Of a stretch of 64,000 nucleotides of DNA, positions 5,071 through 32,310 are shown one piece after another. Each line of letters starts with the position of its first letter. The stretch's first letter is position 1. The position numbers and the translations under genes were made by a program. Under the pieces are notes generated by a model, which did not search any database, was not told where the DNA came from, and saw nothing but the letters and a program-made list of their open reading frames with translations. The DNA comes from an uncultured delta proteobacterium (lineage in GTDB: Bacteria; Desulfobacterota; Syntrophia; Syntrophales; Fen-1087): the NCBI GenBank assembly GCA_963708515.1, contig CAVPSX010000012.1:341247-405246 (forward strand), read 5' to 3'.

Positions 5071-5541
5071 CGAGAACGACAGGGCTGCAATCTGACAGGA
5101 TAAAATGAATCCTTTCAATTATTTGGACAATTTTATATCATATTTTACTTGACGTACCTGTTATTATGGGTTAGACAAGATAAATTGTCACCATGTCAAC
5201 ACAGACGGAGTAATTCATGAGCATGTGGCTTGGGAAATAATATAGCGACTTTGCCATGACATTGTTTGGAGGATAGAGAAGGACCGTTTTAAAAAATTTG
5301 ATATTTGTGTTGAATACGTCGGCTTTTCATTTTACCTGTGCTTTTCTCATTTACGCTCGTCTTATTCCTTGCCTGACCCTTTTTTCCTTTTCCCCCGGTA
5401 AGAATTATCTTCAGAAAGTCCGGGAAAGACTGTTCAACGCGAAAATAGACGATTGATAATTGTTATTATATATTTACAAAGCTTTACAGGCCAGGATTCT
5501 TAAGATTTGTGATGAATCCATGGCAATGGGAGGTAAAAGAA

Positions 5542-6201: not shown

Positions 6202-6396
6202 TGCCCGATTTCGGGCAACGGAATCATCCTTCCAAGGATATTCTTCCGACTTAGCCGGCCTACCACAGCTTTTTTCTTTTTTATTTATCTGAAATACGTT
6301 AGCATCTCTTCCACGGCATGATCTGATCCGTGATTCCATGAAAGTCCATCCACGATACGAAAAACCGAGTAGATCATCTTCCAAGGGAGGTCGTTT

Positions 6397-7770
6397 ATGA
6401 CTGACATTCTGTTATTTATGATCATTGCCCTGCTTCTCGTCGTTGCGGTCCTGCTGTTTTTCGTCCTGAAGCAGTCCTACCAGACCGATGCTTCGCTGCT
6501 TGCCCCTCGTCTGCTTGCCTTCGAAAAGGCGCAGGAACGTATCGAGCATACGCTCCGGGAAGAATTGGCATTAGGCAGGGACGAAACGGGCAAGGTGGCC
6601 AGAGAGCAACGGCAGGAACTCGCATCGGGCGCCAAACAACTGCGCGAAGAAATCGTGACGACGCTCAAGAGCATCTCCGAGACGATGGCCAGGACCATGG
6701 GCGAGTTGGCCAATCTTCAGAAAGCCCAGCTTGAGGCCATGTCGACCGTGATCGGGAAGCTTTCGGATTCAAATGAGAAGAAACTGGAGGCTCTGAGGGT
6801 CACAGTGGAAGATAAGCTCCAGAACATGCAGACCGACAACGCCAGGCAGCTTGAACAAATGCGTCAGACCGTGGACGAGAAACTCCAGGGAACACTGGAA
6901 AAGCGCCTGGGCGAATCCTTCCGGCAAGTCAGCGAACGTCTGGAGCTGGTGCACAGGGGACTCGGCGAGATGCAGACGCTTGCCACGGGCGTCGGCGACC
7001 TAAAAAAGGTGCTCACCAATGTCAAGACGCGCGGCACATGGGGGGAGGTGCAGCTCGGGGCGCTGTTGACGCAGGTGCTCAATCCTGATCAGTTCGCTGC
7101 CAATGTGGCCACGAAGGACGGTGGTGAACGCGTTGAGTTTGCCATCAAATTGCCGGGACAGGGAACTGACGGAGATGAGATCGTCTGGCTCCCGATTGAC
7201 GCCAAGTTCCCTGTCGAAGACTATCAACGGCTGCTCGAGGCGCAGGAAAGAGCCGACAGCGAAGGCGTTGAGGTGGCCGGAAAACAGTTGGAAAACCGTA
7301 TCAAGGCCTGTGCATGGGACATCTGCGGCAAGTACCTGAACCCGCCAAAGACGACGGATTTCGGCATTCTGTTCCTGCCGATAGAAGGCCTCTTTGCGGA
7401 AGTTATCCGCCGGACAGGCTTGACCGATGCTCTCCAGCGAGAGTGCCGCGTGGTCATTGCCGGCCCGACCACCTTATGGTCGATTCTAAACAGCCTCCAG
7501 ATGGGTTTTCGCACGCTTGCCATCCAGCAGCGTTCCAGCGAGGTCTGGAACCTCCTTGCCGCGGTCAAAGCCGAGTGGACAAAATACGGCGATGTTCTGG
7601 ACACCGTCCAGAAGAAACTGAATCAGGCATCAGACACCATCGATAAGGCCAAAATGAGGTCAAGGGCCGTTGGAAGAAAGCTCAAGGACGTGCAGGAACT
7701 ACCCTCCGGTGAGGCTGCCGCCTTGCTGTCCCTTGATGCGCCGGAAGATGATGGAGTGGCAACGCGATGA
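6397..7770 (+). CDS. rmuC: DNA recombination protein RmuC
   Basis: N-terminal TM helix, a long coiled coil, and a C-terminal RmuC nuclease-like region (VEFAIKLPG...WLPIDAKFPVEDY; FLPIEGLF). A GGGAGG RBS is present. Confidence 0.85.
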   Translation: MTDILLFMIIALLLVVAVLLFFVLKQSYQTDASLLAPRLLAFEKAQERIEHTLREELALGRDETGKVAREQRQELASGAKQLREEIVTTLKSISETMARTMGELANLQKAQLEAMSTVIGKLSDSNEKKLEALRVTVEDKLQNMQTDNARQLEQMRQTVDEKLQGTLEKRLGESFRQVSERLELVHRGLGEMQTLATGVGDLKKVLTNVKTRGTWGEVQLGALLTQVLNPDQFAANVATKDGGERVEFAIKLPGQGTDGDEIVWLPIDAKFPVEDYQRLLEAQERADSEGVEVAGKQLENRIKACAWDICGKYLNPPKTTDFGILFLPIEGLFAEVIRRTGLTDALQRECRVVIAGPTTLWSILNSLQMGFRTLAIQQRSSEVWNLLAAVKAEWTKYGDVLDTVQKKLNQASDTIDKAKMRSRAVGRKLKDVQELPSGEAAALLSLDAPEDDGVATR

Positions 7771-10700
7771 AAGATCAATCCAAGACAAAGCAGGCGCTGG
7801 TCCAGGAACTGGCTTCTCTGAGACGGAGAGTCGCAGACCTTGAAAAAATGGAAGCTGACAAAGATGTCATCATACACAGGGACGCCGAAAAAGCGCTCAG
7901 TGAAAGCGAAGAGCTGTACCGCACGCTGGTTGAAACATCACCCGATGCGATCCTCATGTATGCCCTGGACGGAACGATTCTTACGGTCAACAACCAGCTT
8001 GTCGTACGATATGGCGCAGCCAGCGCTGCCGAGTTTCATGCCGAGGTCAAGACCGTCTTCGATCTTCTCGACGAGCTTGACCAGACAACCACGTCAGCCA
8101 ATTTTCGGCGGACGATGATACAGGGGGGATCGCGAAAAATCGAGTATCGGGTGCGCCTGCGCGATGGACAATCTATCTCCGTGGAAACTAATTCATCCGT
8201 TGTAAGGACAGCGGACGGCAAGCCGAGGGCGTTCATCAGCGTGGTCAGGGACATTACCGACCGTAAACAGATGGAGAAAATTCTCCATGACAACAAGGAA
8301 AGGTACCGAAATATCTTCGAGAATGCCAACGAAGCCATATTTGTTGCACAGGACGGAAGGCTGGTCTTTCTCAACCCGATGACCGCCATGATGAGCGGCT
8401 ATTCCGCTGAGGATCTCATGTCAAAGCCATTTATTGAATTCATTCATCCCAACGACCGGGATATGGTGATCGACAGGCATATTAGAAGAATGAAAGGTGA
8501 AAAGATTTCTCACCGTTATGCTTTTCGGATTATTAATAGAGATGGTGACTCCAAGTGGATGGAACTCAATGCCGTCCTGATAAACTGGGAGGGGAGAGCA
8601 GCCACTCTGAATTTTATGAGCGACATCACCGACCGCAAGCGGATGGAGGAAGCGCTACGGGAGGGTGAGGAACGCTTCCGTTCGTTGATCCAGAGTTTAT
8701 CGGATATGATATTCATCATCGACCTCAGCGGCCAAATCACCTATGAGTCTCCTTCCGTGTCGCGGATTCTGGGCTACGAACCCGGCTATTTTATCAGCAA
8801 GTCACCATTTATTCATATTCATCCCGATGACCTTGATCAGGTTGCGAAAGAACTCGACGAGGTCTTTCGATCAGTCAATCCAGGCCTGCCGACGGCGTTA
8901 AGATATCAAAAAGCGGATAACACATGGATTTATCTGGAAGCCCTCGGAAGCAACCATTATGATAACCCGGGCATTCATGGTGTTGTGATCACGGCACGGG
9001 ACATCACCGAGCGTAAATGGGCAGACGCGGCCCTCAGAAAATCAGAGGCTGAGAAAACGGTCATTCTCGAGAGCGTCTCGGATATGATCTTATATATCGA
9101 TAGAGACATGCGGGTCATTTATTCCAACCTCGCCATGGAAAAGTTCTTCAATTTGCATACCGGTTGTTTAGTGGGCAAAGCCTGCCATCATGCCCTCCAT
9201 CATCTCGATACCCCCTGTTCCATCTGCCCTGCTATCATAGCGATGGAAACAGGAAAACCTCATGGGGTTTTCACATCGTCCCTCGGAAGACACTGGCGCT
9301 TGAATGCTTATCCCGTCAGAGACGAAAGCGGTACGATCGTTGGCGCCATCGAGGCCGTCTCAGATATCACGGACTTGCGGAATGCGGAAGAAAAATACCG
9401 GTCGATCTTTAATAATGCCATGGAAGGGATTTACCAGTCGACCTGCGATGGTCGCCTTATCAGCGTCAATCCCGCTCTGGCCAAGATATTTGGTTATGAG
9501 TCCCCCGAAATCATGATGAGCGAAGTGACAAATGTCATGCAGAGTCTCTACGCTGATCCGGAAAAACGGCAAGAGTTCATGCGACTGGTTGAACAGCATG
9601 AAATCGTGAGAAACTTCGAATTTGAGGGATTGAAAAAAGATTCAGAGCGTATTTATGTTTCCGACACCGCCCGTGCGGTCAAGGACAGCAAAGGGAATAC
9701 GATATACTATGAAGGCATTATTCAAGACATCACAGAGCGCAAGCGTTCAGTGGAGGCGCTGCAGCTCAGCGAGGAGCGCTTTCGGGCTTTAAGTGAGAAC
9801 GCACCGGATATTATCTATACCATGAATCCTGATGGAGCCATCTCTTATGTGAATCCGTCGTGGAAAAGGATTTTGGGGCATGATAAAGAAGAAATACGGG
9901 GTTTTTACTTCACCGATTTTGCCAGAGAGGAGGACAGGAGGACCTACCGGAAGCTGTTCAAAAGCATTCGGGACGAGGGAAAGATCGTCAGTAATTACAT
10001 CGGGATTATGATGACCAAGGACGGCGCGGAAAAGGTGTTCAATATGAACAGTGCCTTCAATCGGGATGCGGAAGGTCGTATCATCAGTGTTGTAGGCACC
10101 ATGACGGACGTCACGGACCAAAAAGAAATTGAGAAAAAGCTCCAGCAGGCACAGAAGTTGGAGGCGATCGGGACGCTGGCCGGGGGTATCGCACATGATT
10201 TCAACAATCTGCTGATGGGGATCCAGGGTTATGCCTCACTGACATTGCTGGATCTCGAGCCATCTCATCCCCATTATACGCGCCTGAAGCAGATCGAGCA
10301 GCAGGTGCAAAGCGGCGCCGATCTGACGAAGCAGCTTTTGGGATTTGCCCGGGGCGGGAGATATGAAGCCAAGCCCACGGATATGAATGAGATTGTCGAC
10401 CGGACGGCTGCCATGTTCGGCCGGACGAAGAAGGAAATTGCCCTTCAGCGGAGTCTGGATAAGGATCTCTGGACGGTAGATGTCGATCAGGGGCAGATGG
10501 AACAAGTATTCATGAATCTTTATGTGAATGCCTGGCAGGCCATGCCCGGAGGCGGTGTGCTTTATCTTCAGACGATCAATTTCCTGCTGGAGGGTGACCG
10601 ATTGATGTCCCATACGATCATGCCGGGAAGATATGTGAAGGTATCGATCACCGATACGGGTTCAGGGATGGACGAGAAGACCCGGGAGCGGATATTCGAT

Positions 10701-18229: not shown

Positions 18230-20932
18230 TTATGCCAGAGGTCGGCCTCCATTGAGCTTCTCATAGATCCGGATGTATTCGGCAATCATGCTGCTGAGGT
18301 CGTACCGCTGCCTGGCTTCTTTCATGATACGTTTCATCTGGGTCTCCCGGATATCATCGGGTTTGCGGTGAAAGGCCAGGCTTTTTTCCAGGGCATACCA
18401 GAGGCCGCCGGCGTCGAAGTCCCGAAAGAGAAATCCGTTGCCCACATCCTGCGGGGCGCCGTCCGCTTTCAGCCGCAGTTCCCGTATTTTATCATGGTAG
18501 CCGCCCGTGTCGCGGTTCGTGGCCGTGGCCCCGAAGAGATTGCCAACCTGGTCGATCTGACCGCAGGGTTCGTAGAGTGAAGCTCCGAAGACATCGCTGG
18601 CCGCGGCATAGCCCAGCATGGCCAGCGGTTCGCTGAAGGGCTGGTATGTAATTTTTCCCCGGGAGCTGTATGCGATGCGTCCGAGAATATCCGCATGCGT
18701 CCGGTCGTTGCCGACGCCGTCGGCGACAATGGCAATTTGAACATTTTCGTAAATGTTAATAAAATGCCCGCACACCGCCTCCAACAGCTCGACGCCTTTC
18801 TGAAACGGATCCAGCCGGGAAGGCCAGAAAAACAGGATGGCATGGGGGTTCGCATACAGGCCCGTTTTTTGCTGAAAGGCCACGAGATTCTCGCGCTTGG
18901 CCTCCAGCAGGGGATCATCCGGGCCGTATCTTCTGGCGAGATCATCACGGTTTTCCGGATACATACTGGAGGCTGGCGCGTTGATAATGGACCATGCGGA
19001 GTCGTGGTAATACTTGGCCTTGACTTCATTGCGGACACTTGCGGGCACCAGCGGACGATCCAGAAAATAGTCGTCCACCACTTCCCGCAGGAATCGCTCA
19101 CCCACAAAGTTGATGATCGTGGCATTTTTGATGGCCGTCGCCTGACAGTCAATGCATGCTTTGCCGTAAGCCTCCGAATAGTAAAGATTATTTTCAAAGT
19201 TTCGCAGATTAACCCCGCTTAGCATCTCTATCGGCAAATCAGCCGTGAAAACATTGTGAACCGTATGCAGCACAGGCAGGTCGGTGGACTTTGCATAGGC
19301 CGTGATCGCTCCGCCGGCCATCCAGTCGTGGCTGTGGACAATCAGCCTTCCCTCGTGTTTTGCACGAACCATTTTTATGATGTTATTTACAATTTCGCGC
19401 TGAAATTCGGCAGCTGTGGCAATCGGATCGCAGGAATAGGCGCTCAGATTCTCGGCAAAGATCGCCGAGCTGACAAGATGGATATTTTCTGAATCAATCT
19501 TGTAGCGGATCGCGCGCCAGCCCCGTTCATCGAGATCGCTCTCGCGTTGAAACCGCCTCTTCAAATTCAGCGTGACCAGATGGACATCGATGCCCCTTTC
19601 CCACAGACCTTCACAGAGTGCCGAAACGACCTCTCCCTGACCGCCGCTCTTCCCGGAAATGTATCTGGCCAGGGCGCCCATATCGTCCGGCAGTCTCCCC
19701 GTTTCCGGCGTGATCATCATGAGGGCCGTCCGCTCCTGTTTCCGTACGATCTCAAAACGCCTGATGGCCCAGTCCAGATAATCAATCTTGCGCGTCAGAA
19801 TATGCGAGGGCTGTGCGATAGAACCGCCATAGGGATTGAAATAAGCGTGGACAGCATGATCCTCTCCGATGCGTTCATGAATAAAATAAACATGGTCCGA
19901 TGTGGTCAGGTGCCGCCAGTTGGTCAGCAGATCCCCGCCGGCCCAGCGGGCATTCCGTTCCATGTTCTGAATGTCCTGAAAGAGTTCATACTGTGTCAGG
20001 GTGCCCAGCCAGCCGAAGGTATCCCGGCCGGCGTCAGCCCAGGAAGAGGTCGCCAGTCCGTGAATATCCAGTGTCGGACAATCGACATCCCTGAATTTTT
20101 CAGCAATCTCACTGGGGTTGGCGGCAACGATGTTCGCATGTCTGGCCAGGGCCTCCGGAAGTCCCCGCCAGAATTCGAAAATACCCTTGTCTTCCCAGAT
20201 GTGTTCACCGATATGTTCATAGTCGTAACCCAGCAGGACAGCCTCGCCGTCAATTTTGGCGATAAAGGCGGCGTACTGCTCCGGGGCGATAGGCTGATGC
20301 GGAAAACGGAAAGCTACGTCATCGCTGAGTTCGCGATTCCGGGGAATGACAGTCAAATGACTGTCCTTTGCCCTGAAGACGGCATTCGGCGAAACAGTGC
20401 GATCGGTCTGCGTGAACATGTCGTTCCGCTTTTCACACAGAATGGAAAGATAACCCATATCGGCCACGACATCGGCGATATGGTTGTTGAACATGAGCTC
20501 AGTATTTCGGAAAGATGTCGGGAAAATGCCGAAAAGCTTCCTGATCTTGTCCCGGTGCAGGGAGACCTGGTCACGGAATTCCTGCTTATGGGGATCCTCG
20601 AAAAGACTGCTTAGCGAGTGGTAGTAAGTCTCATCGAGGTATTCCACCTGGTTGTGCTCCCGGCCGGCGTCGAGCAGTTCCTGGAGGGCGCGGATGACGT
20701 CCGGCTGATAGATTTCCGCTTGCTCCAGAAACACACCGGACATGCTCAGGGTGATTTTGAACCCTTTGTTTTGCGCGATAAGCTCCGTAAACATGCGGGT
20801 TGCCGGCAGGTAGCATTTGTCTGATACCTTCAGAAATATCTCCCGGTTCGACGTGTTCCATAGGAACTTGTCCCGGTCCGGATGGAGGCGGAAAGGTTGA
20901 TGAAGCTGAAAGTAGAACGTGACCAGCGGCAT
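18230..20932 (-). CDS. Fusion protein: N-terminal glycoside hydrolase family 57 domain plus C-terminal glycogen-synthase-like glycosyltransferase
   Basis: The N-terminus MPLVTFYFQLHQPFRLHP is typical of GH57. The C-terminal half has GlgA-like motifs (SGKSGGQGEVVSAL; HSHDWMAGG; PSRLDPFQKG; ASLYEPCGQIDQVG...TGGYHD). Confidence 0.8.
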   Translation of the reverse strand: MPLVTFYFQLHQPFRLHPDRDKFLWNTSNREIFLKVSDKCYLPATRMFTELIAQNKGFKITLSMSGVFLEQAEIYQPDVIRALQELLDAGREHNQVEYLDETYYHSLSSLFEDPHKQEFRDQVSLHRDKIRKLFGIFPTSFRNTELMFNNHIADVVADMGYLSILCEKRNDMFTQTDRTVSPNAVFRAKDSHLTVIPRNRELSDDVAFRFPHQPIAPEQYAAFIAKIDGEAVLLGYDYEHIGEHIWEDKGIFEFWRGLPEALARHANIVAANPSEIAEKFRDVDCPTLDIHGLATSSWADAGRDTFGWLGTLTQYELFQDIQNMERNARWAGGDLLTNWRHLTTSDHVYFIHERIGEDHAVHAYFNPYGGSIAQPSHILTRKIDYLDWAIRRFEIVRKQERTALMMITPETGRLPDDMGALARYISGKSGGQGEVVSALCEGLWERGIDVHLVTLNLKRRFQRESDLDERGWRAIRYKIDSENIHLVSSAIFAENLSAYSCDPIATAAEFQREIVNNIIKMVRAKHEGRLIVHSHDWMAGGAITAYAKSTDLPVLHTVHNVFTADLPIEMLSGVNLRNFENNLYYSEAYGKACIDCQATAIKNATIINFVGERFLREVVDDYFLDRPLVPASVRNEVKAKYYHDSAWSIINAPASSMYPENRDDLARRYGPDDPLLEAKRENLVAFQQKTGLYANPHAILFFWPSRLDPFQKGVELLEAVCGHFINIYENVQIAIVADGVGNDRTHADILGRIAYSSRGKITYQPFSEPLAMLGYAAASDVFGASLYEPCGQIDQVGNLFGATATNRDTGGYHDKIRELRLKADGAPQDVGNGFLFRDFDAGGLWYALEKSLAFHRKPDDIRETQMKRIMKEARQRYDLSSMIAEYIRIYEKLNGGRPLA

Positions 20933-22807: not shown

Positions 22808-23824
22808 TCATGATCCGCGTATTTCCTTTGTTTCATAGCCCTGCGTTGTATAGAAAACGGCCTTGTCGAAGAAAATGACGATTCGTCGGTTCAGTTCCAG
22901 GGTCATATAAATATCGATTGTTTTTTGCCACATGCCCTGGGAGAGGGCAAATTCCCAGAGATGTTTCTTGATCAGGCTCAGGGTGCTCAGCACGTTGCTT
23001 AAGGCGATGCAGTCCTTCCGGCTTTCCTGTCCTAAAGCGCTGAAATACTCGCGAAACTCAGAGTCTTTATAGACACCACCCATCCAGCTTCCAAAATGGG
23101 AGAGGATGCTGCAAACATCCCCAAACAAACGCGAGTGATCAAAATGACGGAAACCCGCTGTGGAGGGGTTGGTCAGGGCGTCATTGATCCAGATCCGGGC
23201 AATGGTTTCCGCATTCCTTTCAATGACGTCCACCAGTTTGTCGGACAGGAGATTCTGTTCAACAGGCCTCGCGTTATCTTTGCCGAGAGACTTGCTGAAA
23301 GAGTCGATAATCGCCCAGTACTCGGATTTGCCGGCCACGTAATACTGCATGGCCTTCCTGTTTGAGGGAAATGCCAGGCGGGGAAGGTCATCAATGGGGA
23401 AAAATCCGGCCTTAACGGTATCGCTGCCGGGTTGCACGATCCCCCCGGTCTGTTCCACTTCAAAGGTGATGAATATAAGATCTCCGTAGAAGCGGCTCTT
23501 GTAGGAGTGTACGTCCACGAGACTCAGGATCCGGCCTTCGACGCCGGCTTCTTCCGTCAATTCCCGCAGAGCTGCATTCTGTATGCTCTCGCCGGTCTCG
23601 GCAAATCCGGAGGGCAGGCACCAGACCCCCTTGTAGGGTCGTTTCCCCCGCTTTACAAGCAGAACCTGACGATCTTGGGCGACGATCGTTGAGACAACGG
23701 GCAGCGGATTCATGTAAAAGAACAGATTACAGGTCGGGCAAAAATCCCGCTGAATGCCATCTTCTGTTTTCAGCGAGACGGACCCGCCACAGAAGTGGCA
23801 AAAAAGCCTGTTCCATTTTTTCAT
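22808..23824 (-). CDS. NUDIX hydrolase with an N-terminal zinc ribbon and an uncharacterised ~170-aa C-terminal domain
   Basis: Zinc ribbon CHFCG...CPTC. The NUDIX box is GFAETGESIQNAALRELTEEAGV. The C-terminal helical domain (NAETIARIWINDALTNPSTAGFRHF...) looks RsbRD_N-like, but only tentatively. Confidence 0.8.
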   Translation of the reverse strand: MKKWNRLFCHFCGGSVSLKTEDGIQRDFCPTCNLFFYMNPLPVVSTIVAQDRQVLLVKRGKRPYKGVWCLPSGFAETGESIQNAALRELTEEAGVEGRILSLVDVHSYKSRFYGDLIFITFEVEQTGGIVQPGSDTVKAGFFPIDDLPRLAFPSNRKAMQYYVAGKSEYWAIIDSFSKSLGKDNARPVEQNLLSDKLVDVIERNAETIARIWINDALTNPSTAGFRHFDHSRLFGDVCSILSHFGSWMGGVYKDSEFREYFSALGQESRKDCIALSNVLSTLSLIKKHLWEFALSQGMWQKTIDIYMTLELNRRIVIFFDKAVFYTTQGYETKEIRGS

Positions 23825-24669
23825 GCCTTAGCGCCTCCATACCGGGGCAATGAACAGATGAAAATACGGTCGTCCTTCGAGATGGTCATGCCGTTTCGCT
23901 CAGAGGAGGCCTGCCGAAGATTTTCGAGGAGCACGGGGAGGATGGCCTCCGCATCGAACCCCGCATCCGTCAGATAAAGGGGGCTTTTGAACCGGAAATA
24001 CGCAAGCAGATACTCGCTATCCTCCCTGGAGAAAACGAGCACATTGTTGAAGTCGATAACGCTTATTTTACTGAACCAGGGTTTAAGCAATGATTCTCCG
24101 TTGTCTGATGAGAACCTGTTGTTGATTATTTGCAACGGCAGGTCCTTCGCCTGCAACAGCCCATTTGCCTCAAGTATCGTTTTGGCCAGATCTATCAATT
24201 CGCCGGTGTTTCGCCGGCAGTGCGTAACAACGGCAAAAAAACCATCCGGGCGCAACAGGCGTGTGACTTCCGGAATCACCTCCGGGAAAAAATACAGGGC
24301 ATAAGAACACAGGACCAGATCAAAGGATTTCTCAGGAAAGGTTTTCAGGATCGGCGAGCCTGTCGAAAAAAACCGCCCCTGAATGGACGCTCTCCTGCAG
24401 GCCTCCAGGTAGAGGGGCTCATAGGCCGCGATGATATCAATGCCCGTAGCGGTCGCCTCCGGGGACACCCTGCCCTTGAGCTTCTCGGTGAAAGACCCGA
24501 AGGCACAGCCTAAATCGAGAACTTGCCGGCAGTTTGCGAGTTCAAGCCCTTCCAGGGCGATCTTCTGGACATTGCCTTTGTTTGTCGAAAATCGCTGGAT
24601 GAGATCAGCAACGCGCCGGTGTTCATGGACATCGCGGAAGACTTTTTCGATTTGAAGCTGTTCGGACAT
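23821..24669 (-). CDS. Class I SAM-dependent methyltransferase
   Basis: Motif I is VLDLGCAFGSF. The start is trimmed to MSEQLQIEK (ATG 24669), because the upstream 104 codons of the ORF-track version run through a repeat element. Its stop overlaps the NUDIX start (ATGA). Confidence 0.78.
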   Translation of the reverse strand: MSEQLQIEKVFRDVHEHRRVADLIQRFSTNKGNVQKIALEGLELANCRQVLDLGCAFGSFTEKLKGRVSPEATATGIDIIAAYEPLYLEACRRASIQGRFFSTGSPILKTFPEKSFDLVLCSYALYFFPEVIPEVTRLLRPDGFFAVVTHCRRNTGELIDLAKTILEANGLLQAKDLPLQIINNRFSSDNGESLLKPWFSKISVIDFNNVLVFSREDSEYLLAYFRFKSPLYLTDAGFDAEAILPVLLENLRQASSERNGMTISKDDRIFICSLPRYGGAKA

Positions 24670-24733
24670 CTTGCCGCTCCCTGAAGAGATTACTCCGGCA
24701 ACAATACAATATATGTCAAAGCCGTCATTCCCG

Positions 24734-24794
24734 CGAAGGGGGGAATCCAGAATTGGACTGGATGCCGGATCGAGTCCGGCATGACATTTGATAT
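24734..24794. repeat. 61-bp REP/MITE-like palindromic element (GTCATTCCCGCGAAGGGGGGAATCCAG...GATGCCGGATCGAGTCCGGCATGAC)
   Basis: It has terminal GTCAT/ATGAC inverted ends and three internal hairpins. Its reverse translation gives LDSPLRGNDG, the signature of a widespread intergenic repeat family that generates spurious ORFs. Confidence 0.7.
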
Positions 24795-25046
24795 GTTTAA
24801 TTGCCGAGGTAATAATACAAACGTTTTTCCACCGCACACTGCCCGATTGCTTCGCCTTGACGGATTCACCTTTTTGTGGTCGCATTATAGAGGCATGCTT
24901 TCTGCGTGTCAAGAAAATGACCTCATCTGAATCACTCCTGACGGTTCGGCAATATCTCGTCGTGCAATATCTCGTTGACACACAGGGTCATCGCTTTTAT
25001 ACTCATGACAAAAGCCTTATATAGCCGCCGAAAGCATGGGTGACCC

Positions 25047-26753
25047 ATGAGAATCATATACATCGCCGATATCCACGGGGCCTTTGACAGGATCGGGCAG
25101 CTTCTGGATGCGACAGACGCCGATACTTATATCATCGGCGGAGACCTGATCGACCTGCCCTTCTATACCATGAACACGGCCATGCATTATCACGATCTGC
25201 AAACCTATTTTCATGGTTTGCGGCGCAGGATGAACAAGCCGGACGATCTGCTGGAGGACTTTGTCGATCGCCTCCTGCTGACGCCCGACCTGCCTGACGA
25301 TATCCAGGAAAAAGGGGCGCGCTTTCAGCAGTACACCATCCGCGCCCGCCGTGTGATGCAGCAGAAATACAAGGTTCTGGAAAATATCCTCTCCCTGAAA
25401 ACGGAGGCTCCCTGCTTCTGTCTCCCGGGTAATTATGACATGGATCTCAAATACACCTCACTGCATCACCGTGATCTGCATCTTCAGAGCCGGTTCTTGG
25501 GTCATCTGAATATCAGTGGTTACGGCGGCGCCGGCGGCTGGACCCAGGGGATCCCCGAACGGTATGTGATCCGCAGTCGCTCCGACCATTCTTTTTCCGA
25601 AAGAGACCATGAAATGATCCGCTTTTTCGAAGCGGCCCAGCCGGATCTGATCGTCACCCATCAGCCCGCCCACGGTTTTCATGATCAGGTCACGCCGATG
25701 GGAGAAACGGGTTCCGCGGCGCTGCTGAATTACTGCGAAACCCATGACGTCCTGGCCCTTCTCACGGGGCACATCCATGAGCAATGGGGCTTTGCCGAAA
25801 GTGAGGGGACGATCTATCTGAACCCATCGAATTTCGGAGACGTTGCTCAGATCAGCGGTCGGGTTGCCGAAGGTGGATTCTTTCATGAGATCGAAGTCGA
25901 TAAAAAAAGAATCGAGCACGTGACCTATAAAAAACTGGCCGGTCGGGCTATTTATGACATCATGGTCTATGACCGCCACGAAGACGCCTGGCAAAGCCGG
26001 GTTGTTGACAAGGGGCGCTACGGCGCCCACCTGCGAGGCCAGACCTATGACCACCAACCGGCCTCGGGGGATCATGTGTCTGTCCCTGAATGGTCCGGGG
26101 ACGCACAGGCCCTTTACCGCGATTCTCTGGTTGATACCGGAGATGCCGTCGCCGAGCCTGTGAAAGAAGCCTTGCGGACCCTGGATACCAGGGAGAATCT
26201 CCCTTTTTCGCTGGACATCGTCGGATCGGCCCACGACGGGTTGAGCGATTCCCAATCGGAGCTTGACCTTGTGCTTTACCTGCGGTGCGGGAAATCCGAT
26301 GCGGATAAGACCTGTTTTCGCGGATCATTCTCGGACTGCCCCCATTTTGCCGCAGCGTGGGCGATGCTCCGGGAATGTATCGGCCCACGGATCGCCTTTG
26401 AAATCGCGGACTGCATCGACTTGAATCATGTGGAAAAGAGCATTCGCACCGGAAATTATGAATGTGAAATGACGCAACGTTTCGTTGTTTACCGCTCGAT
26501 GGGTCACCCGCTCCACGCCGCCCATCTGGCGCAGACGGAAGACCTGCTGAGCCGGAACAGCGACTTCAGGCAGGAGCTTGACGGCAGTATCCGTTCCTAT
26601 TTCCGCATTTTTATGACAACGGCCGGGCGCATCCCGTCGTTCAGCACATACGAATCGCATCTGCATGCCATCGGTATTCGTCTCCCCGGGGCGATGCGGG
26701 CGCGTATCCGGGCTTATCTGGAAAGACGGCATGCAGAGGGCGACAGATTGTAA
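25047..26753 (+). CDS. Fusion protein: N-terminal calcineurin-like metallophosphoesterase plus C-terminal Pol-beta-type nucleotidyltransferase-like domain
   Basis: The full MPE motif set is present (DIHG; GGDLID; GNYD; THQPAHG; GHIH). The C-terminal region has an NTase-like G-S...(S)ELDLVL motif (LDIVGSAHDGLSDSQSELDLVLYL) and a later acidic residue (FEIADCIDL). Confidence 0.68.
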   Translation: MRIIYIADIHGAFDRIGQLLDATDADTYIIGGDLIDLPFYTMNTAMHYHDLQTYFHGLRRRMNKPDDLLEDFVDRLLLTPDLPDDIQEKGARFQQYTIRARRVMQQKYKVLENILSLKTEAPCFCLPGNYDMDLKYTSLHHRDLHLQSRFLGHLNISGYGGAGGWTQGIPERYVIRSRSDHSFSERDHEMIRFFEAAQPDLIVTHQPAHGFHDQVTPMGETGSAALLNYCETHDVLALLTGHIHEQWGFAESEGTIYLNPSNFGDVAQISGRVAEGGFFHEIEVDKKRIEHVTYKKLAGRAIYDIMVYDRHEDAWQSRVVDKGRYGAHLRGQTYDHQPASGDHVSVPEWSGDAQALYRDSLVDTGDAVAEPVKEALRTLDTRENLPFSLDIVGSAHDGLSDSQSELDLVLYLRCGKSDADKTCFRGSFSDCPHFAAAWAMLRECIGPRIAFEIADCIDLNHVEKSIRTGNYECEMTQRFVVYRSMGHPLHAAHLAQTEDLLSRNSDFRQELDGSIRSYFRIFMTTAGRIPSFSTYESHLHAIGIRLPGAMRARIRAYLERRHAEGDRL

Positions 26754-26764
26754 GAAGAAAAAAA

Positions 26765-27766
26765 ATGGAAAATAAAACCGCTGGCATGATTGAAACAAAG
26801 ATGATCGCCAGGCTCGTGAATCGCTATCAGTTTTCACTGGCCATTGAAGAGGCTTATGCCGTGACGGCTCAGAGCCTGGGCACATTGCTGTCCGAAGACA
26901 GCGGCATCCTGTATCTGAAAGACGCTCGCCTGGATCTCTATCATCCCATCGCTACATGGGGAAAGACGGCGGAGCCGCCTAAATCCATCAGCAGCCAGGA
27001 TTGCTGGGCTCTGAGGCGCGGCCGCAGGCACAAGGTCGTTGCCGGTTCCGATGACATCCGCTGCAGTCACATGATCTCGCCGCCTGCCGACAGTTCTTCC
27101 CTGTGTGTGCCCATTATGACTTTCGGTGAACCCCTGGGTATGCTACATTTCTCGTCACGGCAGGACAATCATTGTTTCCCGGAAAAACAACAGACCGTAG
27201 GACTCATCGCCGATTTGCTCGCCATGGCCATCGTCAATATCCGCCTGCGCGACCGCATTCAGGACATGGTTGAACGCGATTATCTGACAGGGCTTTACAA
27301 TCGCAAGCATGCAGAGGAACACTTCAGCCGGCTTCTGAAAACAGCCTCCCGCGAAAACAAATCCATCGGCCTGATCATGATGGATATCGATCACTTCGGT
27401 TATTTCACAGAAAACTATGGTTATGGGACGGCGCATGCCGTTCTGCGTGACATAGGCGCCTTTTTGAACGAATACCTGCACAGTGAAGATCTGCCCTGCA
27501 AATTCGGCGGTGATGAGTTCCTGCTGATCCTTCCTGGGAATTCCCTGGAAGCCTCCCGAAAACGGGCCGAGCATATTTGTGATTTGCTAAAAGACCGGGC
27601 CCAGTACGAAGGCCATCGGCACATGCGACGAATTACGCTTTCGATCGGCGTGGCCGCCTTTCCCGATCATGGCACGACAACGGGCGACCTGATTCAGAGC
27701 GTCATCAACGCGGTCAAGCGGGCCAAGGAAGCCGGCCGCGATCGGGTTGCGGTTGCAGAGGAATAA
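26765..27766 (+). CDS. GAF-domain diguanylate cyclase (GGDEF)
   Basis: N-terminal GAF-like domain. The GGDEF domain has DYLTGLYNR, an intact GGDEF active site (CKFGGDEFLLIL), and RxxD absent or unclear. Confidence 0.88.
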   Translation: MENKTAGMIETKMIARLVNRYQFSLAIEEAYAVTAQSLGTLLSEDSGILYLKDARLDLYHPIATWGKTAEPPKSISSQDCWALRRGRRHKVVAGSDDIRCSHMISPPADSSSLCVPIMTFGEPLGMLHFSSRQDNHCFPEKQQTVGLIADLLAMAIVNIRLRDRIQDMVERDYLTGLYNRKHAEEHFSRLLKTASRENKSIGLIMMDIDHFGYFTENYGYGTAHAVLRDIGAFLNEYLHSEDLPCKFGGDEFLLILPGNSLEASRKRAEHICDLLKDRAQYEGHRHMRRITLSIGVAAFPDHGTTTGDLIQSVINAVKRAKEAGRDRVAVAEE

Positions 27767-28304: not shown

Positions 28305-28718
28305 TCAGTAATATATCTGAATCACTGCTGTCCAAAATAACCTGAAAAAGAGTTTGTTCTTGAACCGAAACCGGCGCTTGCCGAAATCCAATGACCGGCA
28401 TTTGCCCAGAAACTGATAAAAAGTCCTCTCGTATAACTGCCACGGTCGGTGTTCATTGGCATAGGACAAGGTCGATCGCTTTGGAGCCTTCTTCAACCCC
28501 AGATGCTTTGCCTTACCGAAACAGCTGGCCAGACCGCCACAGATCTCTCTCAATGAATGGGCCTGTCCACGCTGACAAAAAAGCATGGCCACAAACTGGT
28601 CCCAGCAACTGAACCCCTTGGCCCCACGTTCAGCCTGGGTCGCATAAACCGCTTCAAAAAACTCTCGTTTCGAAAAAAGGTGTAGAATTTGACCGAAAAT
28701 GCTGTTAAATCTGTTCAT
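28305..28718 (-). mobile_element. IS4-family (DUF4372-type) transposase, N-terminal remnant only
   Basis: MNRFNSIFGQILHLFSKREFFEAV...GFSCWDQFVAMLFCQRGQAHSLREICGGL...STLSYANEHRPW is the conserved DUF4372 / IS4 N-terminus, with a strong AGGAGG RBS. Homology ends after FRFKNKL (about 28330). No DDE catalytic region is present. Confidence 0.8.
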
Positions 28719-28849
28719 CAGGGATGCCTCCTTTTCAGGTGTTTGTCTTCTTATGGCAAAGAAACTCTGCCTGATTGTGTGCACCCTCTTCAATTTAAAA
28801 TCCATTTCGGACAGATGTGAACGAAAATAATGGTCCAAAAGGGGGTAAA

Positions 28850-29719
28850 ATGTGCGCCATCAGTCAGGTTATTCTTCATCATGCCTGCCGCATTGCCGGT
28901 GAGATCGGTGCAAAGGCCGTTCTTGTTTATGCCGCCGTAGCTGACGATCTTCCTGTTGCCGACGACCCCGGCCTATGCATGAATATTATTATCGTCACCA
29001 GGGGGGATGAGGAAATCCCATCGAAATTCAAGAATTGCGGCGTCCAGATTCAAGTCCCCAACGTTAATCTCACGCGTGTCGGACAAATTAAAATCGCGAT
29101 TACGAAGGGCATTGCATTAGGCCTTTTCACACAGGGAGACAAACTGGTGTGCGTAAGCGGCGTCCCGCGGTTTGGCTATGTCGATAGTATTTTCGTCATT
29201 GACGTAGGTAAGGAATTTGAAATTCTGGTTTCCGGCAACTTCAGAGATCTGGCCCAGGGGGTTTATCCGGAAGTTTTCGGCGCGGTTATAAATCTGGCCA
29301 TCGAACTGGCTGCTCAGGGCCGGGAAGGCCGGAAGGTGGGAACGATTTTTGTTCTGGGAGACCATGAAAAGGTCATGCAATTGTCCCGGCAGATGATTAT
29401 CAATCCTTTCATGGGATACACAGACGAGCAGCGAAACATTCTCAATCCGGAACTCAAAGAGACCATCAAGGAGTTTTCCGCCATTGATGGCTCCTTTATC
29501 GTCAAAGACAACGGCACGATTGTTACCGCCGGCAGGCATCTGAATGCCGCAATGGACAGCAGGGATTTTCCCCAGGGACTTGGCAGCCGGCATATCGCCG
29601 CCGCCGGGATCACGAGTATTACCAATGCCATTGCCGTCGTTTTATCCGAATCGACGGGAAACGTCAGCGTTTTTAAAGACGGTAAAATCCTCGTCAGCAT
29701 CGAAAAACCAATCGACTAA
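28850..29719 (+). CDS. DisA_N/DAC-domain protein (diadenylate-cyclase-like, CdaZ/DacZ-type architecture)
   Basis: The C-terminal DAC signature is DGSFIV...[14 protein letters not shown]...[14 protein letters not shown]. The N-terminal alpha/beta domain resembles a pyruvate-kinase C-terminal-like domain. A GGGGGT RBS precedes ATG 28850. Confidence 0.72.
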
Positions 29720-29730
29720 CAGGAGGCATT

Positions 29731-32310
29731 ATGAGGTTCGATAAATTTACCCTAAGAGTTCAGGAGGCGTTGCAAGCCGCGCAGGCTCTGGCGTCACAGC
29801 AGGGACACCAGGGGATTGAACCGGAGCATCTCCTGACGGCATTTCTTGAGCAACCGGAGGGGATTACAGGCGTCATCCTGAAAAAACTGGGCGCCGATCC
29901 CGGTCAGATTACCTCAGAACTCAAGAAAGCGCTTGGCAAACAACCCCGTGTCGAAGGCGCCGGCCTGGGGCAGCCGGGTATGACGGCGGGTTTGAATCGT
30001 GTTCTCGATCTGGCCATGACCGAAGCGGCTCGCCTGCGGGATGAATATGTCAGTGCCGAGCACGTCCTGATCGTTATTTCAGATGACAAGGATAGCCCCG
30101 CTGCTAGGATTCTGCGTGCAGCCGGTGTGACCAGGGACGGCATCTTCCGGGTTCTGGTCGATATTCGGGGGAATCAGCGAATCACCGATCCCAACCCCGA
30201 GGACAAATATCAGGCATTAAAGCGTTATGCAAGAGATTTCAATGAATTGGCCCGGAAAGGAACATTTGATCCGGTCATCGGCCGGGATGAGGAAATCCGG
30301 CGCGTCATGCAGGTCCTTTCCCGCAGGACAAAGAATAATCCGGCCCTGATCGGAGAACCTGGCGTTGGCAAAACGGCCATTGTGGAGGGGCTGGCTCAGA
30401 GAATCGTTAATGGCGACGTTCCGGAGAATCTCAAGAACAAACGTGTTGTGGCCCTCGATATCGGCGCCCTGGTGGCAGGCGCCAAGTACCGGGGTGAATT
30501 CGAAGACCGCCTGAAGGCCGTCCTTAAAGAAGTGACGGACGCCCAGGGGGAAATCATCCTGTTTATTGATGAGATTCACACGGTGGTCGGAGCCGGCGCT
30601 GCCGAAGGGTCGGTTGACGCCTCCAACATGCTGAAACCTGCCCTTGCACGGGGTGAATTGCGCTGCGTCGGCGCAACGACCCTCAACGAGTACCGGAAGT
30701 ATATTGAAAAGGATCCTGCTCTGGAGCGGCGTTTTCAGCCCATTGTGGTCAAGGAACCCTCTGTCGAGGATACGATCGCTATTCTTCGCGGCCTGAAGGA
30801 GCGCTACGAGGTTCATCACGGGGTAAGGATTAAGGATTCTGCCATCATTGCCGCAGCTACCCTCTCGAATCGCTATATCTCCGACCGTTTTCTTCCCGAT
30901 AAAGCTGTCGATCTGATTGACGAATCGGCTTCTCGCCTGAGGATCGAACTGGACAGCATGCCCGCCGAAATAGACGTCATTGACCGGAAAATCATCCAGA
31001 TGGAAATAGAAAAGCAGTCGCTCATCAAGGAAACGGATAAGACCTCCTGTCGAGAGACGCAGCAAGCTTGATCACGAACTGGCAGAACTCAGAGAATCCA
31101 TGGACCACATGAAACGCCAATGGACTATCCGAAAAGGAGGCGATAAAAAAAATTCAGGCGGTCAAGAGCCGCATTGAAGTCCTGCAAAACGGAGGAAATA
31201 AATGCCCAGCGGGAAGGGAATCTGGCTCGGGCAGCGGAGCTACGCTACGGTCAACTTGTTGAATTGAATAAAGAACTGGAAGCAGAACAGCTTAAGCTGA
31301 TGGAGGCCCAAAAGGATGAAAGAATGCTCAAGGAAGAGGTGGATGCAGAGGATGTGGCCGATGTCGTGGCCAACTGGACCGGCATCCCCGTGGCCCGTAT
31401 GCTGGAGAGCGATGTCCAGAAGCTGATCCACATGGAGGAAAGGCTCAAAGAGCGCGTGGTCGGCCAGGCAGAGGGAATCGCAGCCGTTTCCAGTGCGTTG
31501 CGCAGAGCCCGGTCCGGGCTGCAGGACCCGAACCGCCCCATCGGTTCATTTATCTTTTTGGGTCCCACAGGCGTTGGAAAAACAGAACTCGCCCGGGCGC
31601 TTGCCGAATTCATGTTTGACTCTGAACAGGCCATGATCCGGATCGATATGTCGGAATATCATGGAAAAACACGCCGTGGCCCGCCTGATCGGGGCGCCTC
31701 CGGGATATGTCGGCTATGATGAGGGCGGATATCTGACCGAAACGGTCCGACGAAAGCCCTATGCGGTCATTCTGTTTGACGAGATCGAAAAAGCCCACCA
31801 TGACGTATTCAACATTCTGCTGCAGATCCTCGACGACGGACGCCTGACCGACGGTCACGGACGGACGGTGGATTTCAAACATGCCATTGTGATCATGACC
31901 TCCAACATTGGCAGCCACTTCATGCAGGACACGGCCATCGATGACGAGGAAAGAAGAGCACGAACCATGGAAATGTTGCGGGCCGGTTTCAAGCCGGAAT
32001 TTCTCAACCGGATCGATGATATCATCACCTTCAGAGCCCTGGACATGGACGACATTGATCGGATATCTGGATCATCCAGTTGGATCTGATCCAGAAACGG
32101 TTGTCGGAGCGGAAAATAACGCTGACATTGACAGAGAAGGCAAAAAAATATATAGCGAAAATCGCCTATAGCCCGATTTATGGAGCAAGACCGTTAAAAC
32201 GGGCATTGCAGAAGATGATTCTGGATGACCTGTCCATGCTGATGTTGGATGGTACATTCGCTGACGGGGATAGCATCCGGGTTGATCTGTCCAAAAAGCG
32301 GTGTCCTTAA
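29731..32310 (+). pseudogene. clpB: Chaperone ClpB, interrupted by about 5 frameshifts in this sequence
   Basis: All ClpB segments are present in order but spread over four ORFs plus a short unlisted bridging frame: the N-domain, NBD1 ([15 protein letters not shown]), the M-domain, NBD2 ([15 protein letters not shown]; MSEY|[19 protein letters not shown]) and the C-terminus (YGARPLKRALQ). Frame changes occur near 31048, 31130, 31187, 31660 and 32065. Confidence 0.9.

Follow-up and report, generated by a model that had tools for sequence, protein, structure and literature searches.

A gene for a two-module phosphoesterase-nucleotidyltransferase protein

The window analysed here, a 64,000-nucleotide stretch of DNA from a member of the Syntrophales, contains on its forward strand an open reading frame for a metallophosphoesterase (MPE) joined to a nucleotidyltransferase (NTase) of the Pol-beta type, with a candidate promoter upstream and a diguanylate cyclase gene immediately downstream:

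24975..25003, forward strand: sigma-70-like promoter candidate, TTGACA-17-TATACT, matching at 11 of 12 positions (a consensus match only) and ending 44 nt before the ATG
25047..26753, forward strand: the whole gene for the MPE-NTase fusion protein, 568 aa plus stop codon, with an ATG start
26765..27766, forward strand: GAF-GGDEF diguanylate cyclase gene, 11 nt after the MPE-NTase stop codon

The fusion protein aligns end to end with homologues of ~560 aa, the full-length homologues ranging from 98% to 47% identity and one relative being 98% identical across its full length; the AF2 model of the full-length protein has a pLDDT of 83 and a pTM of 0.86. The product of the downstream gene is matched by Pfam (1.2e-34) and TIGR00254 (5.7e-38) and carries the motif KFGGDEF. 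No terminator-like site was found between the two genes, and they are probably co-transcribed. Elsewhere in the window, clpB (29731-32310) carries frameshifts and is broken into four ORFs, a sign that this stretch does contain indel errors or pseudogenes.

The preliminary description had read the frame at 25047-26753 as an MPE joined to a Pol-beta-type NTase, and this reading is borne out, the NTase assignment holding at the level of the family. The gene encodes a cytosolic two-module enzyme whose family is conserved, chromosomal and uncharacterised.

The N-terminal module is a predicted metallophosphodiesterase with a helical cap

Conservation was assessed in an alignment of 89 sequences, the window protein and 88 homologues, in which 75 sequences form the main clade and 14 the clade of the window protein. 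The N-terminal module and the bridge that follows it contain these elements:

25047..25871, forward strand: metallophosphoesterase domain of the TT1561/aq_1956/Icc-related type, residues 1-275 (PF00149, Foldseek, PADLOC)
25068..25076, forward strand: MPE motif I, D8-I-H10, invariant in the 89 sequences
25140..25145, forward strand: MPE motif II, G32-D33, invariant
25158..25400, forward strand: conserved helical cap insert between motifs II and III, residues 38-118, including QQYTIRARRVMQQKYK
25428..25439, forward strand: MPE motif III, G128-N-Y-D131, in which Tyr replaces the usual His
25659..25661, forward strand: MPE motif IV, H205, conserved in at least 90%
25767..25778, forward strand: MPE motif V, G241-H-I-H244, with G241, H242 and H244 invariant
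25872..26036, forward strand: beta-sheet bridge after the MPE core, residues 276-330, four long strands

PF00149 (Pfam Metallophos) matches the window protein with 42.7 bits against a cut-off of 21.5 (E 1.1e-10) and was matched by 20 of the 20 family members tested. None of the seven metal ligands (D8, H10, D33, N129, H205, H242 and H244) is missing, each being invariant or almost invariant, and the ordered five-block motif was seen in 0.005% of shuffles of the window protein. PGNYDM, around motif III, is invariant in 89/89 sequences; its Tyr stands at the position of a non-ligand His.

In the AF2 model, the N-terminal half adopts the MPE sandwich fold (pLDDT around 90), the cap is predicted to form helices at 42-61, 69-77 and 84-116 (pLDDT around 90), and the bridge strands lie at 278-285, 288-298, 301-311 and 314-319 (pLDDT 87-96). 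Many residues of the cap are invariant, and it is found also in the split MPE of the Leptospirales described below. A Foldseek comparison with the PDB gave 57 matches at E<=1e-3, all those listed being MPEs; 2yvt was best (E 2.4e-8, TMt 0.67), followed by Rv0805, GpdQ and TT1561 (1uf3, 1.1e-6). PDB sequence searches with the single protein and with the full-length profile gave weak matches to the MPE MPPED2 only. The PADLOC model PDC-S10 matches the window MPE at 2.4e-14, and JGI annotates family members as 'Icc-related predicted phosphoesterase'. PF14582 (Metallophos_3) gave no match at E<=1 to the window protein; the split Leptospira MPE orthologue scores 38.6 bits with it against a cut-off of 28.2.

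The claim of an N-terminal metallophosphoesterase with every motif in place is thus confirmed by a Pfam score above cut-off, the seven ligands and the structural match to 2yvt. Sequence and model together identify module 1 as a predicted binuclear metallophosphodiesterase of the TT1561/aq_1956 (Icc-related) type, whose helical cap is ~80 residues long and whose motif III reads GNYD instead of GNHD.

The C-terminal module belongs to a family of putative Pol-beta-type nucleotidyltransferases

Beyond the bridge, the protein continues with the following elements:

26037..26201, forward strand: linker and first NTase helix, residues 331-385, of low pLDDT, where the sub-clade is unalignable to the rest of the family
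26202..26456, forward strand: Pol-beta-type NTase core, residues 386-470 (family-level PF22600/PF01909; AF2 topology)
26223..26228, forward strand: NTase G393-S394, invariant or nearly invariant
26259..26267, forward strand: NTase carboxylate pair E405-L-D407, for which the family consensus is D-[IV]-D
26409..26411, forward strand: third NTase carboxylate, D455, on predicted strand 451-458, invariant in alignment A4, standalone forms included
26457..26750, forward strand: C-terminal helical bundle, residues 471-568, with invariant F479, Y482, R483, S531 and Y535

The motif V392-G-S394-x10-E405-L-D407-L of the window protein lies on predicted strands 388-393 and 406-412. Of the shuffles of the window protein, 39% contain a loose form of it, G[GS]x9-13[DE]x[DE], which is therefore uninformative alone; a strict form, hG[GS]x10[DE]h[DE]h, was seen in 0.26%. 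The real support for the NTase call is homology, not the motif. PF22600 (MTPAP-like_central) is matched by 18 of 20 members (best 6e-7) and PF01909 (NTP_transf_2) by 15 of 20 (best 2.5e-6), and the standalone protein P0145 scores 26.6 bits with PF01909, for which the gathering score is 21. The window protein itself gave no match to an NTase HMM even at E<=1, and is tied to the NTase-matching homologues by clear-cut homology, with 50% identity over the full length. GS-x10-D-x-D and the third Asp are invariant in the 75 fused main-clade proteins (alignment A2) and in the 17 standalone NTase forms included in A4, and the helical bundle region is common to standalone NTase proteins of 225-240 aa.

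The alpha-beta-alpha-beta-alpha-beta topology predicted by AF2 puts GS, ExD and D455 at the expected places. Foldseek searches of the C-terminal model against the PDB and BFVD returned no significant match; the top matches are almost all Pol-beta NTases (best E 0.25, TM<=0.27, non-significant), the weak ones including MntA, DrrA, GlnE, AadA and LinB. When the PDB was searched by sequence with the broad A4 profile, eight entries were matched, all of them Cid1 or the TUTase MEAT1 (E 0.08-0.11), in alignments that cover the N-terminal helix and GS..SDxD; the narrower C-terminal profile found none for the NTase module. The PAP-associated domain PF03828 is absent from the window protein and from 20 members, and no recognised RNA-binding domain was detected.

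These data argue that module 2 is, at family level, a Pol-beta-superfamily NTase made up of a palm and a C-terminal helical bundle, and that its nearest detectable sequence relatives, at borderline significance, are terminal ribonucleotidyltransferases of the Cid1/TUTase/MTPAP type. What the preliminary description had called a C-terminal NTase, and had proposed to follow by HMM and structure searches, stands for the family by its PF22600/PF01909 matches, D455 and the predicted topology; it carries over less well to the window copy, which has ExD and lacks an HMM match of its own, and the structure searches gave nothing significant.

The two modules are fused in two phyla and adjacent in Leptospirales

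About 263 genomes at species level, from Syntrophales and Spirochaetota, encode the fused protein, the fusion being found in many of the Spirochaetota and the family being ~50% identical across the two phyla, and the fused architecture of 555-590 aa recurs in hundreds of independent assemblies (JGI, ENA, NCBI, Logan). In the Leptospirales, cultured Leptospira included, an MPE gene (333-350 aa) is directly followed by an NTase gene (225-233 aa) with a 4-nt overlap or a 1-nt gap. This MPE is 36% identical to residues 1-298 of the window protein, cap and GNYD included, and the NTase gives a match with an hhalign probability of 100 (E 7e-64); the pair lies in two contexts that differ in their flanks. 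Among more distant relatives there are standalone NTases with no MPE next to them. Since the modules are fused elsewhere and encoded by adjacent genes in Leptospirales, they are functionally coupled, a conclusion that we hold, together with the domain identities, with high confidence.

The layout that defines the family, a capped GNYD MPE followed by a GS-x10-DxD...D NTase with an RFxxYR / SFxKY bundle, was recovered, and the window copy is a divergent member of this MPE-NTase family. For the pairing, our searches brought up neither a curated family nor a solved structure nor a publication: there is no NCBIfam model of the architecture, Pfam model of the C-terminal module or PDB relative among those searched, and nothing in the literature searched describes the fusion or what the TT1561/aq_1956 subfamily does. 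The initial remark that the architecture was not recognisable as characterised was therefore correct. Both catalytic folds are well known; it is their obligate pairing that is undescribed in the curated families, structures and papers found.

The window copy is a derived variant

All 75 main-clade sequences have D at position 405, whereas in the window clade (n=14) nine sequences have D, three have E and one has N, the remaining one having a shifted DKLD. Residues 331-385 of this clade are 7-18% identical to the main clade, and in the NTase N-terminal helix/linker region of the window protein 12 of 15 main-clade-invariant positions are changed. The proportion of such positions kept is 25% in the helix/linker, compared with 89% in the MPE, 86% in the NTase core and 77% in the helical bundle; GS, D407 and D455 are retained. 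The alignments thus indicate that an NTase N-terminal helix motif conserved in the family has been lost in the window sub-clade, and that the sub-clade is derived.

In MntA, a double D39E/D41E change in the GSX10DXD motif abolishes activity (PMC7641770). With ExD in place of DxD and the N-terminal helix motif lost, the transferase activity predicted for the window copy is uncertain. These two changes, taken with the apparent co-transcription with the GGDEF gene, suggest that the window copy may be mainly a phosphodiesterase whose transferase is weakened or altered. It is a natural variant of use, not the best representative of the family.

The genomic context is varied and chromosomal

The GGDEF neighbour occurs only beside relatives of 63-79% identity (L001/L012, L011 and L013); the 70 other loci with callable neighbours lack it, and it was found in no main-clade or Leptospira context. 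The intact cyclase gene 11 nt downstream, to which the preliminary description had drawn attention, is thus a real feature of the window and not of the family; the link is lineage-specific and lies outside the family module. GGDEF, Nudix, methyltransferase and UDG neighbours are all confined to close relatives of the window gene. Neighbourhood analysis across genomes, which had been put forward as a check, showed no conserved operon partner in nine long-contig contexts, and clustering of the ORFs of 73 loci gave no neighbour family in more than 10 of them. Likewise, no RNA ligase, RtcB, Hen1 or tRNA gene recurs nearby in these contexts and 73 loci.

Two candidate components were rejected. ORFs of 130-147 aa considered as a conserved third, small downstream component are unrelated between lineages, and a GT4 glycosyltransferase gene lying ahead of the split pair is missing from Leptospira sp. 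WS92.C1 and therefore reflects only local synteny. Among 72,556 plasmid and 50,697 phage records, none matched the family. From this result and the lack of conserved neighbours in the 73 loci, we conclude that the family is housekeeping and not mobile.

Possible functions

The best overall explanation that we can offer, and we do so tentatively, is that the MPE and the NTase are coupled on the same nucleotide-bearing 3' end. Both active sites would act on one such end, most likely the 3' end of an RNA or oligonucleotide: the MPE would expose a hydroxyl by hydrolysing a phosphodiester at the terminus, whether a 2',3'-cyclic phosphate, a 3'-phosphate or the last nucleotide, and the NTase would then attach to this hydroxyl an NMP from an NTP ('heal and tail'). 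The bacterial CCA-adding enzyme follows the same logic with an HD phosphohydrolase and an NTase. That the modules share some nucleotide-linked substrate is reasonably probable; that they specifically heal and tail RNA 3' ends is considerably more doubtful, and the closest structural neighbours of the MPE, which are small-molecule diesterases (Rv0805, GpdQ and MPPED2) and not members of the RNA-end-healing lambda-phosphatase/Pnkp clade, argue against an RNA-end role. The borderline Cid1/TUTase matches, the absence of PF03828 and of recurring RNA ligase, RtcB, Hen1 or tRNA genes, and the distant standalone NTases that lack a neighbouring MPE also count against the heal-and-tail reading. In its broadest form, and only speculatively, the family may be an unrecognised bifunctional end-processing enzyme, a capped MPE with a Cid1-like NTase, that provides RNA 3' heal-and-tail activity independent of the CCA-adding enzyme, PAP I and Pnkp, or that writes and erases a new nucleotidyl mark, rewired in the window lineage to GAF-GGDEF and c-di-GMP signalling. 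As the MPE/NTase pair is present in cultured, genetically tractable Leptospira, its function is directly testable there.

A rather unlikely alternative is that the NTase modifies a hydroxyl of some protein or small molecule with an NMP, which the MPE takes off again, as GlnD writes and erases with its NTase and HD domains and GlnE with its AT and AR domains. The bond made by an NTase is of exactly the type that an MPE cleaves, the MPE resembles small-molecule diesterases, the modelled NTase-plus-helical-bundle layout is like that of ANT/LinB-type enzymes, and MntA, DrrA, GlnE, AadA and LinB, all AMPylators or adenylyltransferases, are among the weak C-terminal Foldseek matches. All of those fold matches are non-significant, however, while the relatives detected by sequence are RNA-specific TUTases and not ANT or MNT enzymes; a sensor or regulatory domain is absent, and no conserved target gene adjoins the family in 73 loci. 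We give similarly low weight to the NTase of the window copy, and perhaps of its whole sub-clade, being non-catalytic, with a nucleotide-binding or structural role, so that the protein would be a phosphodiesterase only. The first carboxylate deviates (E, N or DKLD) in 5/14 clade members against 0/75 in the main clade, the helix/linker has kept so much less than the MPE (25% against 89% of main-clade-invariant positions), the window protein has no NTase HMM match, and D39E/D41E inactivates MntA (PMC7641770); but the MntA change is a double substitution in a different family, Glu is still able to bind metal, D-x-D is kept in 9/14 clade members, and GS, D407 and D455 remain, as do most of the invariant residues, 86% in the core and 77% in the bundle.

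It is improbable that the protein is a Rel/SpoT-like synthase-hydrolase of a second messenger or short oligonucleotide, read in this lineage by the GAF domain of the downstream cyclase. The 11-nt gap without a terminator, the adjacency kept in relatives of 63-79% identity, the relationship of the MPE to the cNMP phosphodiesterases Rv0805 and MPPED2, and a weak PADLOC 'oligonucleotide cyclase' match in one homologue (0.0022) all fit such a role, yet the GGDEF link is missing at 70 other loci and from every main-clade and Leptospira context, there is no conserved receptor or effector gene, a CD-NTase or OAS signature was not found, and the clade with the GGDEF neighbour is the very one whose NTase looks degraded. 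An anti-phage defence gene, with a PDC-S10-like phosphoesterase and a CD-NTase-like module, is far less probable still: the PDC-S10 match of the MPE part (1e-14 to 6e-18) spans the generic MPE core only, and the gene is single-copy and chromosomal, lies in varied housekeeping contexts that are not like defence islands, is ~50% identical across two phyla and is missing from the plasmid and phage records. Among known defence-system models, PADLOC gave only PDC-S10 on the MPE core and the 'Cyclase' match at 0.0022 in one homologue, with no conserved partner. Finally, the four-ORF clpB made it plausible that an assembly indel had joined two genes; this is refuted by the same fused architecture in hundreds of independent assemblies and 263 species-level genomes and by the relative that is 98% identical over the full length, and its probability is negligible.

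Comparison with known systems

The best structural matches to the N-terminal module, TT1561 (PDB 1uf3) and aq_1956 (PDB 2yvt) of COG2129, are standalone proteins of about 230-260 aa that are themselves uncharacterised; compared with them, the window protein adds the ~80-residue helical cap, the beta-sheet extension and the fused NTase. With Cid1, the trypanosomal TUTase MEAT1 and MTPAP, the family has in common the N-terminal helix, hGS-x10-DxD, a third Asp and a following helical domain. In contrast to Cid1/TUTase, PF03828 was not detected in the family, and the NTase module is only ~230 aa long and carries, between strand 2 and helix 3, an insert that contains Cys; furthermore, ExD stands in the window copy, the E-values of 0.08-0.11 are borderline and no structural match is significant. 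The minimal NTases of the MntA type (MNT/HEPN antitoxins) carry the GSX10DXD motif and provide the top non-significant Foldseek matches (7ae9, 7bxo and 6m6u), but they are about 100-140 aa long and paired with a HEPN toxin, whereas the family has no HEPN partner, an extra helical bundle of ~100 aa and a coupled MPE.

In Clostridium thermocellum Pnkp and Pnkp-Hen1, RNA ends are processed by a binuclear MPE that is both a 2',3'-cyclic phosphodiesterase and a phosphatase (PMC2190708, PMC4411300). The likeness lies in an MPE that shares a chain with a nucleotidyl-transferring module. The other modules of Pnkp, however, are a P-loop kinase and a covalent ligase-type adenylyltransferase, where the family has a Pol-beta NTase, and the Pnkp MPE is of the lambda-phosphatase type, outside the top 50 structural neighbours of the window MPE. 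Pfam, NCBIfam and PDB searches found no P-loop kinase or ligase module in the window protein, only the MPE and the Pol-beta NTase, and no Hen1 or ligase gene lies near the window gene. The resemblance to RNA-end healing and sealing enzymes that was drawn at the outset is thus not of the Pnkp/Hen1 type, and we retain the RNA-end analogy as a working hypothesis.

The family can also be compared in its logic with the CCA-adding enzyme, GlnD and Rel/SpoT, in which one chain likewise combines a nucleotidyl- or pyrophosphoryl-transferase with a metal-dependent phosphohydrolase. In those enzymes an NTase-fold domain is fused to an HD phosphohydrolase, and the hydrolase prepares the substrate or reverses the transfer. 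The hydrolase of the present family is instead a calcineurin-like MPE, and it lacks a tRNA-binding body and an ACT or TGS domain. The likeness is an analogy of logic only, homology having been shown for no more than the NTase fold. Each of the known NTase-phosphohydrolase fusions controls a central process, namely tRNA end repair (the CCA-adding enzyme), nitrogen signalling (GlnD) and the stringent response (Rel/SpoT); a fourth, MPE-based one could mark an unknown RNA-end or nucleotidylation pathway.

Two catalytic modules in one chain

The open reading frame and the cyclase gene behind it are exactly as the preliminary description had them:

25047-26753 (+), target ORF, ATG start, 568 aa
26765-27766, intact GAF-GGDEF cyclase, starting 11 nt past the target stop codon (PF00990 1.2e-34, TIGR00254 5.7e-38)

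The window protein aligns end to end with ~560-aa homologues, and its full-length AF2 structure model is confident (pLDDT 83, pTM 0.86). Its N-terminal half is, as proposed, a calcineurin-like phosphoesterase: every motif block is found (D8-x-H10, G32-D33, G128-N-Y-D131, H205 and G241-H-I-H244), an ordered set that 0.005% of shuffled versions of the protein reproduce, and Pfam Metallophos scores 42.7 bits (cut-off 21.5). The PDB neighbours listed for this module are metallophosphoesterases (MPEs) throughout, headed by aq_1956 (2yvt, 2.4e-8) and followed by Rv0805, GpdQ, TT1561, purple acid phosphatases, Vps29, MPPED2, Mre11 and LpxH. Between motifs II and III lies a ~80-residue insert, predicted to form three helices, that ranks among the family's most conserved parts (QQYTIRARRVMQQKYK), and beyond the MPE core come four long strands (residues 278-319).

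The C-terminal motifs are V-G393-S394-x10-E405-L-D407-L, then D455. By itself the motif is weak evidence for a nucleotidyltransferase (NTase), since its loose form occurs in 39% and its strict form in 0.26% of shuffles; the case for NTase identity rests on homology. At the family level the proposed NTase stands, with PF22600 (MTPAP-like central palm) matching 18 of 20 homologues (best 6e-7) and PF01909 (NTP_transf_2) 15 of 20 (best 2.5e-6), although the window protein's own C-terminal module has no match in Pfam, NCBIfam or PDB sequence searches. In the PDB, the profile of A4, a broad NTase alignment including standalone forms, finds only the TUTases Cid1 and MEAT1, at borderline E-values (0.08-0.11) and in alignments spanning the N-terminal helix and GS..SDxD. 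The predicted order of elements (helix 370-381, strand 388-393 with GS, strand 406-412 with ExD, helix 432-445, strand 451-458 with D455) is that of the Pol-beta NTase topology, and residues 474-567 are a helical bundle in the AF2 model. Foldseek with a separate C-terminal model (pLDDT 74) gave no significant match; its non-significant top list is almost all Pol-beta NTases (MntA, HalB, AadA, LinB, DrrA, GlnE, TUT4).

We also note a Cys-rich insert, C414-x8-C423-x7-C431-x-H433 (residues 414-433, nt 26286-26345), between NTase strand 2 and helix 3, which may be a metal site. C414 and C431 are near-invariant across the family, and Leptospirales forms have three to four Cys.

Fused and split forms

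Among 1.84 billion proteins, a profile of the C-terminal module found only 96 cluster representatives, some of them fused (520-565 aa) and the others standalone (213-240 aa). When one genome per species was scanned, 263 genomes encoded a relative; the best 80 of these are all MAGs, from Syntrophales (Syntrophaceae, Smithellaceae) or Spirochaetota. Leptospirales are the source of the standalone NTases, and on three long contigs these lie directly 3' of a 347-350-aa MPE gene, with a 4-nt overlap in two of the three. Over window residues 1-298 this MPE shows 36% identity, cap and GNYD included, and the NTase aligns to residues 388-559. The standalone MPE is common in Leptospiraceae, cultured Leptospira species among them; in the cultured Leptospira sp. 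WS92.C1 the NTase homologue (hhalign probability 100, E 7e-64) begins 1 nt past the MPE stop codon, in flanks that differ from those of the other Leptospirales contigs:

4201-9258 of CP162130.1 (L095), one strand: hypothetical 229-aa ORF, MPE, NTase, overlapping hypothetical 140-aa ORF, and, downstream, recG

The existence of one pair in fused and split forms is the strongest evidence here that both activities work jointly. Neither of two more distant standalone NTases, P0161 and P0167, has an MPE gene beside it:

L091 263-904, L092 226-888, L093 159-821: distant standalone NTase relatives

P0161 lies near a caspase-domain gene, and P0167 directly after the 3' end of a gene encoding a protein with a tail that is, by eye, putatively PhoU-like.

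A derived copy in the window

The motif GSxNxG..SD[IVL]D is present in all 75 fused sequences of the main clade. In the window's clade (14 sequences, each at least 64% identical), the first carboxylate is E in three, the window protein included, D in nine, N in one and shifted (DKLD) in one.

Table. Main-clade positions at least 95% conserved that the window's clade keeps
MPE: 89%
NTase core: 86%
C-terminal helical bundle: 77%
NTase N-terminal helix/linker (residues 331-385): 25%

In residues 331-385 the window protein is changed at 12 of 15 main-clade-conserved positions, in a region that standalone forms keep (IKxFFRxxET). In MntA, a double D-to-E change in the corresponding motif abolished adenylylation (PMC7641770). 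Given this result, the carboxylate variation and the helix/linker loss, NTase catalysis seems to have come under relaxed or altered constraint in the very lineage that gained the GGDEF neighbour. The MPE of the window copy is intact.

Genomic context

Upstream of the target, 44 nt from its ATG, there is a strong sigma-70-like site, and no terminator-like site was found between the target and the GGDEF gene. Comparison across genomes bore out this pairing for close relatives only: a GAF-GGDEF gene lies 3' of the target in L001/L012 (79% identity), L011 (78%) and L013 (63%). Neither in nine long-contig contexts nor among 73 loci whose ORFs were clustered did any neighbour family recur at more than 10 loci. 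The MPE-NTase gene is chromosomal and without a conserved partner.

The cyclase orthologue of L013 (7680-8708, +) reads GADEF in place of GGDEF. One sub-lineage alone carries, convergent and immediately 3' of the fused gene, a zinc-ribbon-like (CxxC...CxxC) ORF with no Pfam match. The coordinates of this ORF, and then of further genes in the window, are:

L005 7793-8233 (-), L007 7698-8141 (-) and 9-10 further Smithellaceae loci: ~146-aa zinc-ribbon-like ORF
18230-20932 (-), GH57 glycoside hydrolase and GT5 starch/glycogen-synthase-like fusion, 900 aa, kept in L001
22808-23824 (-), Zn-ribbon Nudix protein with ~170 extra C-terminal residues, divergent from the target
23821-24981 (-), SAM methyltransferase, divergent from the target
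28305-28838 (-), shortened DUF4372 ORF (IS4-type transposase N-terminus, 9.5e-21)
28817-29719 (+), DacZ-type diadenylate cyclase (DAC 1.8e-23, DacZ_P sensor domain)
29731-32310 (+), clpB in four consecutive ORFs (29731-31071, 31174-31719, 31661-32089, 32080-32310)

The mechanically called methyltransferase ORF (386 aa) is over-extended (282 aa in the L001 orthologue), and a perfect TTGACA-17-TATAAT lies within it at 24912-24884 (-). The DUF4372 ORF sits between a UDG-like gene and the diadenylate cyclase, where L001 has a HrpA-like helicase after the UDG gene. The DacZ-type cyclase, ~1 kb beyond the GGDEF/UDG genes on their 3' side, and the upstream Nudix gene belong to a stretch rich in nucleotide-signalling genes, an arrangement not kept in relatives. 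Pfam profile coordinates run on through the clpB ORFs (AAA_2 1-43, then 43-166, then ClpB_D2-small); this implies at least three frameshifts, hence a pseudogene or assembly indel errors.

Candidate functions

The two catalytic modules have complete or near-complete active sites and are coupled across fused and split forms, and we infer that both act on one nucleotide-bearing substrate. We tentatively favour a scheme in which the MPE would heal an RNA or oligonucleotide 3' end and the NTase would then add an NMP to it, because at sequence level the NTase is related only to terminal RNA NTases, the conserved basic cap hints at a polyanionic substrate and the lack of any partner gene hints at a ubiquitous one. 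Against an RNA substrate, the MPE's neighbours are small-molecule diesterases, neither a PAP-associated nor an RNA-binding domain was detected, and no repair genes lie nearby.

Rather less probable is a writer-eraser of nucleotidylation, and we give about the same weight to an NTase that is catalytically silent in the window copy, which overlaps with 3'-end healing and addition. A second-messenger synthase-hydrolase whose messenger is read by the GAF-GGDEF protein is unlikely. Anti-phage defence is very improbable: the PADLOC match is confined to the MPE core (candidate PDC-S10), and plasmids and phages gave no family matches. An assembly artefact as the source of the fusion is refuted, its likelihood being negligible. 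The preliminary interpretation as a whole is supported in part.

NCBIfam has no family for the fusion, and we found nothing in the literature on it or on what the TT1561/aq_1956 subfamily does, in agreement with the earlier view that the architecture is uncharacterised. Cultured Leptospira make the family testable. MPE-NTase is an uncharacterised family assembled from known kinds, and the window holds a divergent member.
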